Sequence record: NC_073051.1
Strand: one strand, 5' to 3'
Source: Escherichia phage PEC14
Length of the DNA stretch: 37,268 bases
Shown: one piece after another, positions 11,954 to 36,042 of the stretch
Position numbering within the stretch: position 1 is the first letter of the stretch
How the letters are laid out: every line of letters starts with the position of its first letter
Notes under the pieces: generated by a model
What the model was told of the DNA's origin: nothing
Seen by the model: only the letters and a program-made list of their open reading frames with translations
The model's database searches: none
Program-made: the position numbers and the translations under genes

Positions 11954-11989
11954 GCAACCAATATACTGCAACCAACATTCACAATGCAA
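11954..11989 (-). promoter_or_regulatory. candidate promoter for minus-strand cassette: two ATTGGTTGC-type motifs plus TTGCAT-N18-TATATT
   Basis: Motifs read on minus strand, oriented toward the start at 11924. Confidence 0.4.
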
Positions 11990-29923: not shown

Positions 29924-29927
29924 ATCA

Positions 29928-29952
29928 GAGGGGCCATTCGGCCCCTCTTTTT
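29928..29952. terminator. bidirectional terminator between fibre gene and convergent minus-strand block
   Basis: agaggggccattcggcccctct followed by ttttt. Confidence 0.65.
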
Positions 29953-30526
29953 AGTTTGAGTTTTCCCAGTCCATTTTGCGCCGCACAAGCGGGCTTTCGT
30001 AATATTCCTTACCTTCCACTTCCACTAAAGGCCAATCGTTCACGATCACGTATGGCTCTGCTATGTCCTCAATCACACCGTGCGCGCTATGCTGCCCGAA
30101 CGACACACCGACCAGAATAACCCCGGCAACTCGACGTGAAAGATACTCGCGAGCGCAACGGGCCTCAACCAGACCGCGACGGATGCCGCTGGTGGCTTTG
30201 ACCTCATATGTCCAGACGGCATCAATCATATGCTCTTTGTAGTCGGGACCGGATTTTACCTTGCGCTTGCCAACCATGATAATATCGCCGCGGTCGATAG
30301 TGTTAGCGCTAAACAGGCCGGTACGCATTAGCAAACCTTGCGGGATACAGCTACGCCCGCCCGCCTGCCCTTCGAGGTACATGCCCGCAAACATCTCGCC
30401 AAGCACACCGACAAGACGGCTTTGCTTGCACGCGTCAGACTTGTATCGCCACTGGTCAAACTCGATGCTTGCTATCATTGCCGCCAGGTGGAATTGTTTA
30501 CCGGTTATTTCATATTCGCCGTACAT
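29951..30526 (-). CDS. hypothetical protein (191 aa), possible PD-(D/E)xK-type nuclease
   Basis: GAGGGG SD; segment IDAVWTYEVK loosely fits a D...ExK pattern. Confidence 0.45.
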   Translation of the reverse strand: MYGEYEITGKQFHLAAMIASIEFDQWRYKSDACKQSRLVGVLGEMFAGMYLEGQAGGRSCIPQGLLMRTGLFSANTIDRGDIIMVGKRKVKSGPDYKEHMIDAVWTYEVKATSGIRRGLVEARCAREYLSRRVAGVILVGVSFGQHSAHGVIEDIAEPYVIVNDWPLVEVEGKEYYESPLVRRKMDWENSN

Positions 30527-30568
30527 TGTGAACCCCTCATTGATGCGGGCCGAAGCCCGCTATTAGAA

Positions 30569-31090
30569 TTATTTAAGTGCGCCAGTCACCAGTGTTTTTT
30601 CCATGTTACGGAAATCTTCCTGCGTCATGCAGATTTTCGATCCGTCTTCGCCCGTGAGCACGACCATAGGCTGGACGTCCTGGGCTACAACTCCAAAATT
30701 GGCGGCGTTAACCGTCTTGCCAACAGATGAAGAAGGATGCCACGTCCCCGCGACGTCGATGGGCCAACCTTTGAGGCTATCGTATTGCGCTGCCGTTGTA
30801 TCGATCTGAATCTCGTCATGCACGGTCATGTAAGACTCGCCCAGCAGGGCGGCATACGCCACCAGATCCACGATGTTATCTTCCTGGTGTTTACGGTGCT
30901 GGCGCACCAGCTTCAGGCAGATCAGGAAGGTCCAGGCTTCTTGCTCGGACAGGTCGCGCCCGGTAAGCGCGTTAAACACGGCAGCGATTTGTTTAGCGCT
31001 GCGTTCTTCTTTCGCGTTGTCATAGCCGTTTTCTTTCCCGCGCTGTTCCATAGTGGTGGCGGCGTTTTTGCAGTATTCGTATGCTTTCAC
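30569..31090 (-). CDS. hypothetical protein (173 aa)
   Basis: GTG start with AAGGG SD; no motif recognised. Confidence 0.45.
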   Translation of the reverse strand: MKAYEYCKNAATTMEQRGKENGYDNAKEERSAKQIAAVFNALTGRDLSEQEAWTFLICLKLVRQHRKHQEDNIVDLVAYAALLGESYMTVHDEIQIDTTAAQYDSLKGWPIDVAGTWHPSSSVGKTVNAANFGVVAQDVQPMVVLTGEDGSKICMTQEDFRNMEKTLVTGALK

Positions 31091-31137
31091 AGTATTACCC
31101 TTTTTAGTGAGGGGGCTGTATTGCCCCCGACACGTTT

Positions 31138-31167
31138 ACTATAGTGCAACCAATCTATTGGTTGCAA
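31138..31167 (-). promoter_or_regulatory. perfect palindrome TGCAACCAAT-CT-ATTGGTTGCA with TTGCAA-N18-TATAGT
   Basis: Read directly at 31145-31166; overlaps the 3' end of the HAD gene and lies upstream of the gene starting at 31090. Confidence 0.45.
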
Positions 31168-31625
31168 GTGAATTTTGCAACGTTTATCGCGTAAATTTTC
31201 GGGACCAAATCACCACACGCCCGACGAATTGCTGCGATGTTCTTCGGGCAGTCTTCAATGATGACCAGTTCCGACACGTCCGCATAACAGACCATTTTGA
31301 ACACGGCGCACGCCTTAAACTCTGGCGGCGGGGTGTCGTCCAGCATGTGGCGCATAAACAACCTGCCTACCGGGAAGACCTCCAATTGCTCGGCGGTGGT
31401 TTCCCAGCATTCTCGCTGCCGGTTGGTCAGATACGCGATCTCGAAGCCTTGCTCTTTATACATGCGCAGTAGCGGCAGCATATCCATGTTCAGGTCTTCG
31501 CGGACGTGCGCCTTGTGCCACTTCGCCCAAAAGGTGGATTTAGTTTTTACACCCGGCACCAGGTCGGCACGCGCATCGCTTGAACCGTTAATAACGCCAT
31601 CCAAATCGCAAATCAGTAATTTCAT
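31155..31625 (-). CDS. HAD-superfamily phosphatase (possible nucleotidase)
   Basis: N-terminal HAD motif I LLICDLDGVI. Confidence 0.55.
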   Translation of the reverse strand: MKLLICDLDGVINGSSDARADLVPGVKTKSTFWAKWHKAHVREDLNMDMLPLLRMYKEQGFEIAYLTNRQRECWETTAEQLEVFPVGRLFMRHMLDDTPPPEFKACAVFKMVCYADVSELVIIEDCPKNIAAIRRACGDLVPKIYAINVAKFTCNQ

Positions 31626-31826
31626 TTTAAGCTCTCAATAAGGGTGTATCGGGCGCTGCGCGCGGTGAAGGAGTTACACACGAAATGGCAACGCGTGGTT
31701 ATGACAAGCCAGCCGGTAAGATCTAGGCCCAGAATATATTCAGGCCGCGACACGCGACGCACACGATCGCGGCGGGGGTCGATGCAGAAGTCTTTTTGCA
31801 TTTGGTCTACTACCGCAGGGTCGCGG

Positions 31827-32312
31827 TCAACGATTAAGATATTCAAGGAGTTCTCCTTCGCTCATTATTTCAATTTGTGCGCTGCCGGTGGGCGGCGCTT
31901 CGTCAAAGATTATCAATTGCTGGCACTTGTTATTGCTCGGACCGACTTCACCGGTTACAGCATGTATGAATCGGATCCGCCAGTCCAGAAGAATTATCAG
32001 GTTTGCAGTCTTCCGGGCCAGCTTTGCCCACTTCGTCGACGTGTCCTGATTCAGCAGCATGACGGTCCGGCGTCCGTGCGCTGCACACTCGACCCACGGC
32101 AGCGGATCGGAATACGGCGGGTTGCACCACTTCCACCCTTTCAACTCTGACCAGTCCGCCTCAAGCGCGCTGTGCTCTGCCGTGAAGTAACGCGGTAGCA
32201 GGTGGTTGGCATCGCTCGCCGCCATGTCATAACGGAATCGGTACTTCCGGCGCAGCGGTTTAAATAAAGCTGGCGGCGTGCGCCAGCTATCTTTTTGCTC
32301 ACTCTTCTGCAT
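31827..32312 (-). CDS. dam: DNA N6-adenine methyltransferase (phage Dam family)
   Basis: WRTPPALF motif and catalytic NPPYS motif present. Confidence 0.75.
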   Translation of the reverse strand: MQKSEQKDSWRTPPALFKPLRRKYRFRYDMAASDANHLLPRYFTAEHSALEADWSELKGWKWCNPPYSDPLPWVECAAHGRRTVMLLNQDTSTKWAKLARKTANLIILLDWRIRFIHAVTGEVGPSNNKCQQLIIFDEAPPTGSAQIEIMSEGELLEYLNR

Positions 32313-32763
32313 GGTCGGTGTCTATCGCATACAGGGCGATTTTATCGCCGGTTTTGAGAATGCGTTGCACGCGCTTTGTCCCCTCGACACTAAGCGGACG
32401 CGCGTCCGGGTAGAAGCTGCCATTTGTAGGGTTGCGCCACGCCATAAGCACCAAATCTTTACGGTCAACCTTAGACTGGCGACCCTTCGGTCGCACGTAC
32501 TCCTCGGCCCGTTTACAGTGCTCCCGCAACGCCTCAGCCGTGATGCGGTTTAGTGCAACGCTGGTGGTGTATCCGGTGCGCTGCATAATCCCCATCAATT
32601 CGAATAGCAGTCCGAAGCGCTCCGCTAGATCCTGGCGCACTTTCTTCTCTCCTTCATATAGCGCCTGGTTGGTGTCCGCCAACGCGTTCGCACGTTCGGC
32701 CTGTTCGCGGGCTTTAAGGCATTGCGCAGCCCAGTAATCCTTTTCTTCTTGTAAAATTTTCAT
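32299..32763 (-). CDS. hypothetical protein (154 aa)
   Basis: ATG abuts the upstream stop; overlaps dam start. Confidence 0.45.
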   Translation of the reverse strand: MKILQEEKDYWAAQCLKAREQAERANALADTNQALYEGEKKVRQDLAERFGLLFELMGIMQRTGYTTSVALNRITAEALREHCKRAEEYVRPKGRQSKVDRKDLVLMAWRNPTNGSFYPDARPLSVEGTKRVQRILKTGDKIALYAIDTDHAEE

Positions 32764-33006
32764 CTATTTAAACTCCGTTGTGCGGATTTCCTTGCGTGGT
32801 ATAAATTTGCCGTCTTTCTCGACCCAGCAAGTGCCACCGCGCCACTGGGTGTTACGACCTGTTAGTTCTGCGTAGACAATCCGGCATTCATATTTATCGA
32901 GGTTATACGTGCAGGAAATCGGCAGCAGGAGACAAAAGAATAAGAACAGCACCATACACACCCAAAAACGTAAATCCCCGTCGTCGTCAAAAAAGAATCG
33001 TTTCAT
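32764..33006 (-). CDS. small membrane protein (80 aa)
   Basis: Start at ATG 33006 with GAGGA SD; hydrophobic segment FWVCMVLFLFFCLLLPI. Confidence 0.4.
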   Translation of the reverse strand: MKRFFFDDDGDLRFWVCMVLFLFFCLLLPISCTYNLDKYECRIVYAELTGRNTQWRGGTCWVEKDGKFIPRKEIRTTEFK

Positions 33007-33051
33007 GGTTAAATCCTCATATAAAAAAGGGCATCCAAACCGGACACCCTC

Positions 33052-33085
33052 AATATAATGCAACCAATATGATTATGCAACCAAT
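33052..33085 (-). promoter_or_regulatory. candidate promoter: two ATTGGTTGCAT copies with TTGCAT-N17-TATATT
   Basis: Read on minus strand at 33060-33068 and 33077-33085; -10 at 33052-33057. Confidence 0.45.
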
Positions 33086-33409
33086 TTACGCATAAAAGTT
33101 AGGGTCGCGTGCAACGTCTACCAAATACAGATTGCTGATTCGGTTGCCGTAGTGGCCTGGCGTGCGCTGACGGCACACTACGGCATAGCCTGGAGGTATT
33201 GTATTGCCAGTCTCAATGATCCACGCCACGCGTGCGCCAGACAGCGTCTTGCCGTTGTACTCGATACGAGTACCGCCATCGGCAGTGTTAAGGTTGCCAA
33301 TCTTGCTACCGGTAGACTTCAGGCGGATGACGCCCGTTTTACTGTCGTAGGTGAATAGCTGATTGGTCATTGCTACCGAAAAATCGATGGCTTCGAATGT
33401 GGTATTCAT
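33086..33409 (-). CDS. HNH_3/homing-endonuclease-like DNA-binding protein, probably catalytically degenerate
   Basis: Pattern GARVAWIIETGNTIPPGYAVVCRQRTPGHYGNRISNLYLV resembles HNH_3 domains but lacks the His in the catalytic position. Confidence 0.4.
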   Translation of the reverse strand: MNTTFEAIDFSVAMTNQLFTYDSKTGVIRLKSTGSKIGNLNTADGGTRIEYNGKTLSGARVAWIIETGNTIPPGYAVVCRQRTPGHYGNRISNLYLVDVARDPNFYA

Positions 33410-34116
33410 TCTAAATTTTCCTCGTTAACTGCGATTGCGAAGCCGCGCGGGGTGCGCGACCTGATTAGTTTGGTGCGGGCCGATTTGCCTCCGAGGCGAC
33501 TATACTGCTTCGAGTACCCTTTTTCAACGAAAACAGGTTTCTTCTCTGGCATACGGAAGCCGTTGCCGGTCCATAAGCAGGTCAGCTTCGGATATGAATC
33601 GCGGGCGTTGATGTATTCAGGGAATAACGGGTGTACGTCATCCTCTGGCAAATAGCCTCCATACTCCCACGGGTCAAACGAGTGGTCCGGCTTACGCCAT
33701 TGAGTGGAGAGCACGCTGCGCGGATTCTCAATCATATACGGCACTTCGAAGAAATCACCCAGGTAAGCGGCGATCTTCGCGGTGCGCACCGCCTTAAGCT
33801 GGAAGGCAGGGTCGCGGGCGCGTTTGCGCGGGAACGCTGGCGCACCACTAACCGCCAGATCCGTACACGGCGGGAATGCATAGATGATATCCGGCGTGCC
33901 GAAATCACCATTCATCGCGCGGTCCACGAAGTCCAGATCGATAAACTCATTACGATATCGGATACCGCGCCCATAAATCCGGTAGTCCAGGTACGACCCG
34001 TGATCGGCTTCGGAGTAGTTGAAGCAATAACACTTATGCCCCATCTCGGCAGCACGCTCAATCATCAAGCCGCTGCCGTCGAATAATGACCAGATTGTCA
34101 TTTTAGCAATAGTCAT
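33406..34116 (-). CDS. short C5-cytosine-methyltransferase-like protein (236 aa)
   Basis: Motif I-like SLFDGSG, motif IV-like FPPCTDLAVSG with Cys, motif VI-like ENP; no room for a full target-recognition domain. Confidence 0.5.
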   Translation of the reverse strand: MTIAKMTIWSLFDGSGLMIERAAEMGHKCYCFNYSEADHGSYLDYRIYGRGIRYRNEFIDLDFVDRAMNGDFGTPDIIYAFPPCTDLAVSGAPAFPRKRARDPAFQLKAVRTAKIAAYLGDFFEVPYMIENPRSVLSTQWRKPDHSFDPWEYGGYLPEDDVHPLFPEYINARDSYPKLTCLWTGNGFRMPEKKPVFVEKGYSKQYSRLGGKSARTKLIRSRTPRGFAIAVNEENLE

Positions 34117-36008: not shown

Positions 36009-36042
36009 ACTATACCGCTACGCGACCAATTCAGCAACCAAT
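36009..36042 (-). promoter_or_regulatory. candidate promoter ATTGGTTGCTG-N17-TATAGT inside 3' end of VRR-NUC gene
   Basis: Motif copies at 36022-36030 and 36034-36042; -10 at 36009-36014. Confidence 0.35.

Follow-up and report, generated by a model that had tools for sequence, protein, structure and literature searches.

Does the run of leftward genes between the tail-fibre terminator and the helicase of Escherichia phage PEC14 constitute a single DNA modification and anti-restriction module, as the first-pass annotation proposed? The window, meaning the whole stretch of DNA analysed (37,268 nucleotides), matches Escherichia phage PEC9, a Dhillonvirus, at 100% identity, and positions 29951-34116 are occupied by nine open reading frames, all on the minus strand, which are numbered here g1 to g9. 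The earlier count of nine genes holds, but the list that went with it sums to eight, and the genes without an enzyme assignment are four (g2, g4, g6 and g7) rather than three. In 142 phage records (about 140 sequenced relatives, syntenic) the block is present over at least 80% of its length, and metagenomic relatives keep the gene order with protein identities of just 33-80%; because all nine reading frames are conserved as proteins among relatives, they are real genes and not chance ORFs. Within the genus the enzymes are 93-99% conserved, and g4, g6 and g7 only 58-89%. The reading that we favour, at a probability of about 0.6, takes the interval to be the accessory half of the Dhillonvirus leftward replication operon, distal to the promoter: a set of nine independent genes which probably includes the means of self-methylation and does not form one machine.

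The block is bounded on one side by an SNF2-type helicase gene, which follows g9 at 34113, and on the other by a bidirectional hairpin terminator (29927-29948, both strands; stem of 9 bp, 7 of them G-C, and T-runs on each strand) that is placed between, and is common to, g1 and the convergent tail-fibre gene (end 29923). The sequence ATTGGTTGC is present in the window in 12 exact copies, far above the approximately 0.3 expected by our own estimate for a 9-mer, and with up to one mismatch there are 25 matches versus 10.7 +/- 3.5 in shuffles. Two promoter-like sites within the interval carry this repeat, and relatives conserve such sites. One (TTGCAA-18-TATAGT, 31167-31138, minus strand), upstream of g2, is built on an inverted pair (31146-31154 on the minus strand and 31157-31165 on the plus strand). 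The other (TTGCAT-17-TATATT, 33080-33052, minus strand) includes two direct copies (33077-33085 and 33060-33068), a pair that is kept at the equivalent position in SECphi18 and Oekolampad, and is directly followed by a hairpin and T-run (33051-33027, minus strand). The motif behind the three interspersed promoters described earlier is thus real, but only these two sites are inside the interval, the third lying outside it, on the upstream side of the helicase (about 36042-36005).

The helicase-proximal gene, g9 (33406-34116, minus strand; 236 aa), encodes an orphan Dcm-like C5-cytosine DNA methyltransferase that matches phrog_757 'DNA methyltransferase' (E 7e-84), a family with more than 1500 phage records. 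There is no match to the Pfam C5-methylase family PF00145, and profile matches to the PDB are confined to DNMT3B, over motifs I and IV, with a non-significant E of 0.9. The motifs FDGSG, PPC and ENP are present in the translation. The target-recognition region is very small. The closest experimentally studied type is the Dcm of the Drexlerviridae phages K42 and KarlJaspers, whose gene is likewise 711 bp long and near that for the helicase, and for which the Hanrivervirus phiE31-2 gp038, also 711 bp, serves as a proxy: it is 54% identical to g9, with FDGSG, PPC (84) and ENP (130) invariant. Experiments have shown that K42 Dcm, of this Hanrivervirus type, places 5mC at CCWGG sites in msDNA and triggers the retron Ec86/Eco1. 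The K42 residues mutated in that work, C82, E128 and K175, correspond to Cys84, Glu130 and Lys177 of g9, whereas a further mutated lysine, K176, is Leu178. Conservation of the catalytic Cys84 and Glu130 together with the 54% identity bears out the earlier description of a C5-methyltransferase-like protein; CCWGG specificity and retron triggering may extend to g9 by likeness to the K42 Dcm type.

A second orphan enzyme, the N6-adenine DNA methyltransferase g5 (31827-32312, minus strand; 161 aa), was rightly recognised as Dam-type, since it belongs to Pfam PF05869 (E 6.1e-36; 124 bits, cut-off 28.1). It also matches phrog_111, is classed by PADLOC as an orphan MTase, and has the NPPY catalytic motif, although it falls below the NCBIfam equivalog cut-off (88.4 vs 97.05 bits). 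The motifs on which the first identification was based, WRTPPALF and NPPYS, are found in its translation, as is DLDGV in that of g3. Identity to T1 Dam is 31% (E 7e-17), and both genes are located just downstream of the replicative helicase/resolvase, but g5 is 76 residues shorter (161 vs 237 aa) and lacks the N- and C-terminal extensions of the T1 protein. M.EcoVT2Dam and T1 Dam are presumably both PF05869 members that methylate GATC. For M.EcoVT2Dam the reported target is GATC.

The reduced length of g5, the missing Pfam match and small target-recognition region of g9, and the annotation of all nine genes as hypothetical in the PEC9 record could be taken to mean that the block is a bin of unrelated accessory genes whose methylases are inactive relics or act on non-DNA substrates, with no DNA modification taking place. 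We regard this as very improbable, as the methylase catalytic motifs are intact, with conservation of 93-99% within the genus and 66-80% among distant relatives, which indicates purifying selection on function, and as a homologue of g9 of the same length is active on DNA in experiment. With two DNA methyltransferases present, the phage very probably methylates its own DNA. A search of the literature for Dhillonvirus methylation data found none, and we therefore infer the activity and site specificity of g5 and g9 from their homologues at 31% and 54% identity; on that footing the proposal that the phage modifies its own DNA is well supported.

Whether such methylation serves restriction evasion is a separate matter. 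Palindromes of 6 bp are strongly avoided in the window (433 observed versus 649 expected, with many sites occurring 0-1 times where 7-17 are expected), and restriction is therefore a major selective force on the phage genome. Neither GATC (146 versus 175 expected) nor CCWGG (126 versus 136 expected) is avoided. These near-normal counts are equally compatible with protection by the host Dam and Dcm. As E. coli K-12 hosts already have both enzymes, the phage copies are of unproven benefit. The methylases could instead serve phage DNA transactions, with full GATC methylation blocking nicking by MutH and mismatch repair on fast-replicating hemimethylated DNA or marking DNA for control of replication, packaging or promoters, and cytosine methylation having a similar housekeeping role. 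The host supply of Dam and Dcm fits with this, as does the position of the methylase genes, which in Dhillonvirus and T1-like phages alike adjoin the helicase within the replication operon, but T1 Dam is dispensable for growth and the palindrome avoidance points to restriction; on balance we think it unlikely, if worth keeping in mind. In the BASEL phenotyping the type I-III systems tested had a moderate effect on Dhillonviruses, which were thus sensitive to them, and among the related Drexlerviridae no link emerged between methylase genes and restriction resistance; the absence of a resistance phenotype also favours a housekeeping role. We know of no system in that set which GATC or CCWGG methylation would block, and the plating data accordingly limit the methylation claim rather than refute it.

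At the far end of the operon, its last gene g1 (29951-30526, minus strand; 191 aa) belongs to a rare phage family with 15 representatives. We judge it to be a PD-(D/E)xK nuclease from its predicted fold and its invariant E-D-ExK residues, the E...D...ExK signature being on the expected helix and strands of the model; fold and signature agree with the earlier suggestion of a possible PD-(D/E)xK-like protein. No sequence-profile link to Pfam nuclease families was found. The fold search gives a generic match (Z no greater than 7.1), with the I-Ssp6803I homing endonuclease at the top and archaeal Hjc resolvases and type II restriction enzyme cores among the neighbours; however, the position of g1 is fixed across the genus, whereas a homing endonuclease would be distributed patchily. 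The phage has a separate candidate resolvase of the VRR-NUC type adjoining the polymerase.

Between the methylase and the nuclease, g3 (31155-31625, minus strand; 156 aa) is a HAD-superfamily phosphatase of the Pnkp or class B-C acid-phosphatase type (phrog_415, E 9e-37). Its Acid_phosphat_B score of 23.6 bits is under the cut-off of 27, and it is also below the NCBIfam cut-offs, but D7, D9, R69, K104 and D125 are invariant among homologues to as low as 24% identity. The DxDGV nucleophile and the Ser/Thr-x-Arg, Lys and Asp motifs are common to the T4 Pnk/Pnkp1 phosphatase domain and class B/C acid phosphatases, and profile comparison with the PDB shows about equal likeness to Pnkp1 (4xrp, 3.7e-5) and an acid phosphatase (2i33, 5.2e-5). 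The PHROG includes 'polynucleotide kinase' entries and there is weak similarity to a T1 protein annotated as polynucleotide kinase; unlike Pnk/Pnkp, g3 is stand-alone without a kinase domain, and the block encodes no ligase. The intact catalytic residues and profile matches agree with its earlier identification as a HAD phosphatase, but the equal resemblance to both types lends no specific support to the suggested manipulation of nucleotide pools.

Genes of the g1 family are near an adenine-type methylase in six of seven distinct contexts examined, usually a few genes downstream in one operon, although in one (L015) the two are about 6 kb apart and on opposite strands. The methylases belong to PF05869 in the Dhillonvirus-like contigs and in three that are T1-like, whereas a 42-kb contig has MT-A70 and another contig N6_N4_Mtase, and in two contexts a HAD phosphatase is located between methylase and nuclease. 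With restriction endonucleases among the structural neighbours of g1, this arrangement could reflect a phage-borne restriction-modification-like pair, in which g1 breaks down DNA of the host or of competitors that lacks methylation or carries a different pattern of it, the methylase shields the phage genome, and the phosphatase trims ends or nucleotides for reuse. This seems improbable to us: the co-occurrence may be trivial, given how common methylases are in the replication modules of such phages; the remaining context (L014) has no methylase on its 10-kb contig; the generic fold match is headed by a homing endonuclease; and E. coli DNA is already GATC-methylated, such that host DNA would not be told apart by a self/non-self scheme based on GATC.

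The remaining genes are heterogeneous. g4 (31622-31846, minus strand; 74 aa), which is left without a CDS in the PEC9 GenBank record, is an orthologue of Ksap1, with 89% identity to a syntenic 74-aa ORF of SECphi18 that sits between the methylase and phosphatase genes, matching the published description of Ksap1. Ksap1 of SECphi18 binds and activates Klebsiella pneumoniae Avs2 and is dispensable in that phage. Two of three escape positions, L39 and F60, are kept in g4, with K30R at the third and seven further substitutions. An activator of Avs2 immunity is at odds with the idea that the uncharacterised members are candidates for counter-defence. g8 (33086-33409, minus strand; 107 aa; 93-97% conserved within the genus), whose start overlaps the g9 stop, was earlier called HNH-like, and this is upheld by its match to phrog_99 'HNH endonuclease' (E 1.5e-16) and the conserved segment RQRTPGHYGNRxNNL, but not by Pfam HNH_3 (E 0.052, under the cut-off) nor by the canonical DH...N...N spacing, which is missing, and it appears to be a degenerate HNH_3-like protein.

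g7 (32764-33006, minus strand; 80 aa; phrog_18961, unknown function) is a predicted small membrane protein with a single N-terminal hydrophobic segment by hydropathy (aa 13-32) and a Cys-rich tail; it starts at an ATG behind a GAGGA ribosome site, within a mechanical ORF extending to 33063. It is a variable accessory gene, present in 77 phage records at mostly 57-70% identity and absent from SECphi18. g6 (32299-32763, minus strand; 154 aa; unknown function) is fast-evolving, with identities within the genus of 73-82% versus 93-99% for the adjacent enzymes, homologues found in Dhillonvirus-like contigs only, and no match in Pfam or NCBIfam. Its designation as 'DNA ligase' in RefSeq re-annotations is unsupported, the KxDG motif being absent. 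g2 (30569-31090, minus strand; 173 aa) is a DUF6378 protein (PF19905, E 1.1e-9; phrog_9871); when 20 homologues are aligned, a helical domain (aa 1-86) and a short C-terminal tail are seen to be conserved on either side of an indel-rich middle, and the conserved N-terminus supports the GTG start. Modelling gave a poor structure (pLDDT 58), with which a fold search returned no match.

No DNA-mimic-like acidic protein was found among the nine genes, and profile searches of the block returned no hypermodification enzymes and a single defence or anti-defence profile, that of the orphan methylase. These results, the heterogeneity of the genes, the published restriction sensitivity of Dhillonviruses and the inclusion of two immune liabilities (Ksap1 and the Dcm type) argue against a coherent anti-restriction module. 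The block is ordinary and largely described already, and is no new anti-restriction system; what is modestly new is confined to the assignment of g1 as a nuclease and the recurrence of its family downstream of adenine methylases.

In the favoured reading of an accessory half-operon of independent genes, host RNA polymerase would read the array from sigma-70-type promoters bearing the ATTGGTTGC repeats, and g5 and g9 would outpace limiting host Dam and Dcm in methylating the GATC-like and CCWGG-like sites of replicating phage DNA. Packaged genomes would then be fully methylated and resistant only to enzymes with overlapping sites (MboI/DpnII-type and EcoRII-type), with protection against other restriction enzymes coming mainly from avoidance of palindromic sites. 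g3 would probably take 3'-phosphates off nucleic-acid ends or nucleotides, g1 would probably act as the DNA-cutting enzyme of recombination or host-DNA breakdown, and g4, g6 and g7 may be rapidly changing host-interaction proteins. Host immunity would sense several of these products, Ksap1 through Avs2 and the Dcm type through retron Eco1, both of which, by analogy with the phages in which they were studied, are documented immune liabilities rather than demonstrated counter-defences.

The 4.2-kb interval at 29951-34116 matches Escherichia phage PEC9 (ON548431, genus Dhillonvirus) at 100% identity. Many other Dhillonvirus members match it at 88–92% DNA identity, and at least 80% of the interval is carried by 142 phage records. 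Nine tightly packed minus-strand ORFs, referred to here from left to right as g1 to g9, are bounded by a bidirectional terminator located behind the tail-fibre gene (29927-29948) and by an SNF2-type helicase gene. Every gene of the interval is called 'hypothetical' in the PEC9 record. Relatives with fuller annotation, among them Oekolampad (Bas18, BASEL), already name Dam-like and Dcm-like methylases, a putative phosphatase, and a homing endonuclease at the matching positions. The motifs quoted in the first-pass annotation are all present in translations of the nine ORFs, and its count of nine minus-strand genes stands, with four genes lacking an enzyme assignment rather than the three unknowns it listed. 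Scanning the window for Rfam families and tRNA genes gave no match, and PDB sequence searches using single g1, g2, g3, g5, g6, and g9 sequences returned chance-level matches only. The block is also present at ~91–92% identity in records named Acinetobacter phage NJ01, Salmonella phage Kenya-K19, and a Campylobacter phage; these three host labels are surprising, the genus being otherwise confined to Escherichia and Shigella.

The gene order in metagenomic relatives is polymerase, VRR-NUC, helicase, Dcm-like, HNH-like, a variable position, g6, Dam, Ksap1-like, HAD, a second variable position, DUF6378, and g1. This order is kept although the proteins are only 33–80% identical, indicating that the array is old and stable. 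Within the genus the enzymes are 93–99% identical, whereas g4 (Ksap1), g6, and g7 are 58–89% identical or missing, a much faster change than in the neighboring enzymes that would fit an interaction with the host. The interval had been proposed to be a coherent anti-restriction or nucleotide-pool module, for which we find no support. None of the encoded proteins has the acidity expected of a DNA mimic (pI values are 5.2–9.2, with no strongly acidic protein), and no base-modifying or hypermodification pathway enzymes are recognized by Pfam, PHROG, or NCBIfam. PADLOC returned only orphan methylase models for the interval, all for g5, and no anti-defence profile, and the components expected of a dedicated module, of the Ocr/ArdA-type mimic, DarB-type, deazaguanine-pathway, or hydroxymethyl-pyrimidine-pathway kinds, did not turn up in these searches. 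Because its members evolve differently and show no mimic-like acidity, hypermodification enzyme, or anti-defence profile, we regard the interval as an accessory stretch at the end of the replication operon and not as a single system.

Two of the genes code for predicted DNA methylases. The sequence of g5 (31827-32312) clearly predicts a member of the Pfam Dam family of phage N6-adenine DNA methyltransferases, scoring well above the PF05869 cut-off (124.1 versus 28.1 bits, E 6.1e-36, profile positions 5–146 of 169). Its (D/N)PP(Y/F) catalytic motif is CNPPYSD at residues 63–69, which aligns with LNPPYS of T1 Dam, a protein 31% identical to g5. It falls below the NCBIfam TIGR01712 equivalog cut-off (88.4 versus 97.05 bits), such that it is related to that family without being certified as an equivalog. 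Hia5/Hin1523, which are non-specific adenine methylases, were considered as possible relatives of g5, but no conclusion was drawn from them, since these proteins (DPPY motif, 281 aa) are placed in the E. coli Dam/DpnM lineage.

The 236-residue product of g9 (33406-34116) belongs to phrog_757, whose members occur in over 1500 phage records. It matches no Pfam family at E values up to 0.1, and thus not the general C5-methylase profile PF00145, and a PDB profile search returned only DNMT3B at E 0.9. Nonetheless, alignment with two Drexlerviridae orthologues shows that motif I (F12-D-G-S-G16), motif IV (P83-C84), and motif VI (E130-N-P) are invariant. Hanrivervirus phiE31-2 gp038, the product of a 711-bp gene, is 54% identical to g9 over its full length, and its length and residue numbering fit the published K42 Dcm, in which C82, E128, K175, and K176 were mutated; in this comparison gp038 stands as a proxy for K42 Dcm, rather than the K42 sequence itself. 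K42 Dcm puts 5mC on the msDNA of retron Ec86, as seen by LC-MS, requires a CCWGG site, and triggers the retron.

The first-pass suggestion that the phage modifies its own DNA is right in part, in that methylation is supported. Self-methylation of the phage DNA is probable and is our best-supported inference, because both methylases keep conserved, intact catalytic motifs, a homologue of g9 is experimentally active, and 6-bp palindromes are strongly avoided but GATC and CCWGG are not. In the whole window there are 433 6-bp palindromes where 649 are expected, and many sites occur 0–1 times versus 7–17 expected (observed/expected: AAGCTT 0/11.5, GGGCCC 0/11.9, GGCGCC 1/17.5, GCCGGC 1/14.9), whereas GATC (146 observed versus 175 expected) and CCWGG (126 versus 136) are near expectation. 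The host Dam and Dcm could account for this lack of GATC and CCWGG avoidance equally well. Against restriction, the phage seems to rely mainly on the passive avoidance of sites. In the BASEL phenotyping, Dhillonviruses are moderately sensitive to the type I–III systems tested, with resistance below that of the deazaguanine-modified Queuovirinae, and methylase genes and resistance are unlinked in the Drexlerviridae; any protection is therefore expected only against enzymes whose sites overlap GATC or CCWGG. The papers searched gave no direct methylation data for Dhillonvirus, and a DruSM1 knockout study was set aside as evidence, its subject being a Queuovirinae phage of another genus.

The product of g3 (31155-31625) is predicted to be a HAD-superfamily phosphatase. 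Its HAD motifs are complete, with D7 and D9 (DLDGV), T67-x-R69, K104, and E124-D125, and five sequences with identities down to 24% all keep D7, D9, R69, K104, and D125. It scores below the cut-offs of the named HAD subfamilies Acid_phosphat_B (23.6 versus 27 bits) and HAD_PNKP (13.3 versus 27.6 bits), and far below those of all the NCBIfam HAD models. Its profile matches Pnkp1, an RNA-repair phosphatase, and a class C acid phosphatase with similar strength, and either would be a candidate model for its activity. The HNH-like g8 (33086-33409) matches the HNH family phrog_99 (E 1.5e-16) but has an atypical core, with a conserved GHYGNRxNNL segment, no D-H...N-N...N-L motif at the usual spacing, and a Pfam HNH_3 score of 13.6 against a cut-off of 24.8 bits. 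The DUF6378 protein encoded by g2 (30569-31090) has a variable linker. Its structure model is poor (pLDDT 58) and a Foldseek search against the PDB gave nothing at E <1; the idea that DUF6378 proteins might be MazG-like was dropped, and the 'phosphofructokinase' labels of g2 in PHROG are unsupported. The PEC9 record begins this gene 13 codons late (31052-31090), and the GTG start at 31090 is supported because the N-terminus, MKAYEYCKNAATT, is conserved in all of the homologues.

Among the rapidly changing genes, g4 (31622-31846) is the orthologue of Ksap1 (Avs2-stimulating protein 1), being 89% identical to SECphi18 Ksap1 over 74/74 residues and occupying the syntenic site, with the methylase and phosphatase genes on either side; it is missing from the CDS features of the PEC9 GenBank record. 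Ksap1 binds and activates Avs2 of K. pneumoniae, and is dispensable and of no known function (PMC11564622). The PEC9 variant, which may likewise bind and activate KpAvs2, carries K30R at one of three published escape positions. The 154-residue g6 product (32299-32763) is confined to Dhillonvirus-like phages, and its orthologues are named 'DNA ligase' in RefSeq/GenBank records (SSL-2009a, HH3, McMelon, AV129) and in phrog_10530. We reject this assignment, as there is no ligase domain or motif and the length is implausible, and the name looks like a propagated annotation error. The product of g7 (32764-33006) is 80 residues long with a single hydrophobic segment, and is present in just 77 phage records, being absent from SECphi18 and about half of the related records. 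Ksap1, through Avs2 (PMC11564622), and the Dcm type, through retron Eco1, are two documented host-immunity signals in the block; retron Sen2 is reportedly triggered by Dam-type methylation, and the Retron-Eco7 paper reports a Dhillonvirus trigger gene of unknown function. This partly reverses the proposal that the unknown genes are candidates for counter-defence; the only one of g4, g6, and g7 to have been studied, Ksap1, is a target and not a weapon.

The motif ATTGGTTGC is present in 12 exact copies in the window versus about 0.3 expected, a highly non-random number, usually in direct or inverted pairs overlapping sigma-70-like promoters. The exact matches form a cluster at 1054-2033 and lie at 11954-11976, 28066, 31146-31165, 33060-33085, and 36022-36042, positions conserved in SECphi18 and Oekolampad. 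Three promoters had been described as interspersed among these genes; the motif sites are real, but only two are inside the interval (31167-31138 and 33080-33052), with the third outside at ~36040. In this respect the motif resembles an operator for a phage regulator more than a promoter element proper. A minus-strand hairpin with a T-run (33027-33051) starts one base past the -10 of the 33080-33052 promoter, such that read-through transcripts from g9-g8 would include the full hairpin and could terminate there, whereas transcripts started at the promoter would not include its 5′ arm. The promoter and the terminator thus form a nested pair. A second minus-strand hairpin, a stable GCGGGC-TTCG-GCCCGC tetraloop without a T-run (30545-30560), is located between the g2 stop codon and the g1 ribosome site, and may serve in RNA stability or processing.

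The last gene, g1 (29951-30526), codes for a predicted member of the PD-(D/E)xK nuclease superfamily, its structure model (pLDDT 81) having the restriction-endonuclease-like fold. All 16 sequences compared, which are 23–77% identical, keep residues E44, D81, E108, and K110. The 16 members gave only chance-level matches against Pfam and no PDB sequence match, and thus correspond to no described sequence family; a viral fold library search returned almost only uncharacterised proteins. The family is rare, with 15 representatives among 1.84 billion proteins. In six other contexts, belonging to other types of phage, remote homologues come towards the end of the replication module, including those at loci L010 (7464-8057), L012 (8001-8534), L013 (7001-7585), L015 (7001-7564), and L016 (7001-7525). 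An adenine-type methylase is nearby in five of the six (PF05869 in three, MT-A70 in one, N6_N4_Mtase in one), usually a few genes upstream, although in L015 it is on the opposite strand at a distance of ~6 kb; the L010 and L013 loci have a HAD phosphatase between the two. It is conceivable, albeit improbable, that g1 and the phage adenine methylase encoded upstream of it, possibly joined by the HAD phosphatase, constitute a methylation-guided DNA-degradation system. If so, this phage-borne system would break down the DNA of the host or of competitors and spare the methylated phage DNA, and the partnership would explain why, in phage lineages that are unrelated, the g1 family is found downstream of three kinds of adenine methylase. 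The co-occurrence may be trivial, because replication modules of this kind often carry methylases. We note the uncharacterised g1 nuclease family as a minor lead.

This interval has been described and annotated in relatives before, and two of its proteins feature in published studies. The main value of the analysis is in annotation clean-up: the nine 'hypothetical' PEC9 genes can now be annotated, the missing ksap1 added, and the propagated 'DNA ligase' label dropped from g6 orthologues. For phage therapy and defence research, at least two proteins of the block act as host alarm signals beside methylases that are presumed to protect the DNA, and host range is therefore influenced in both directions.
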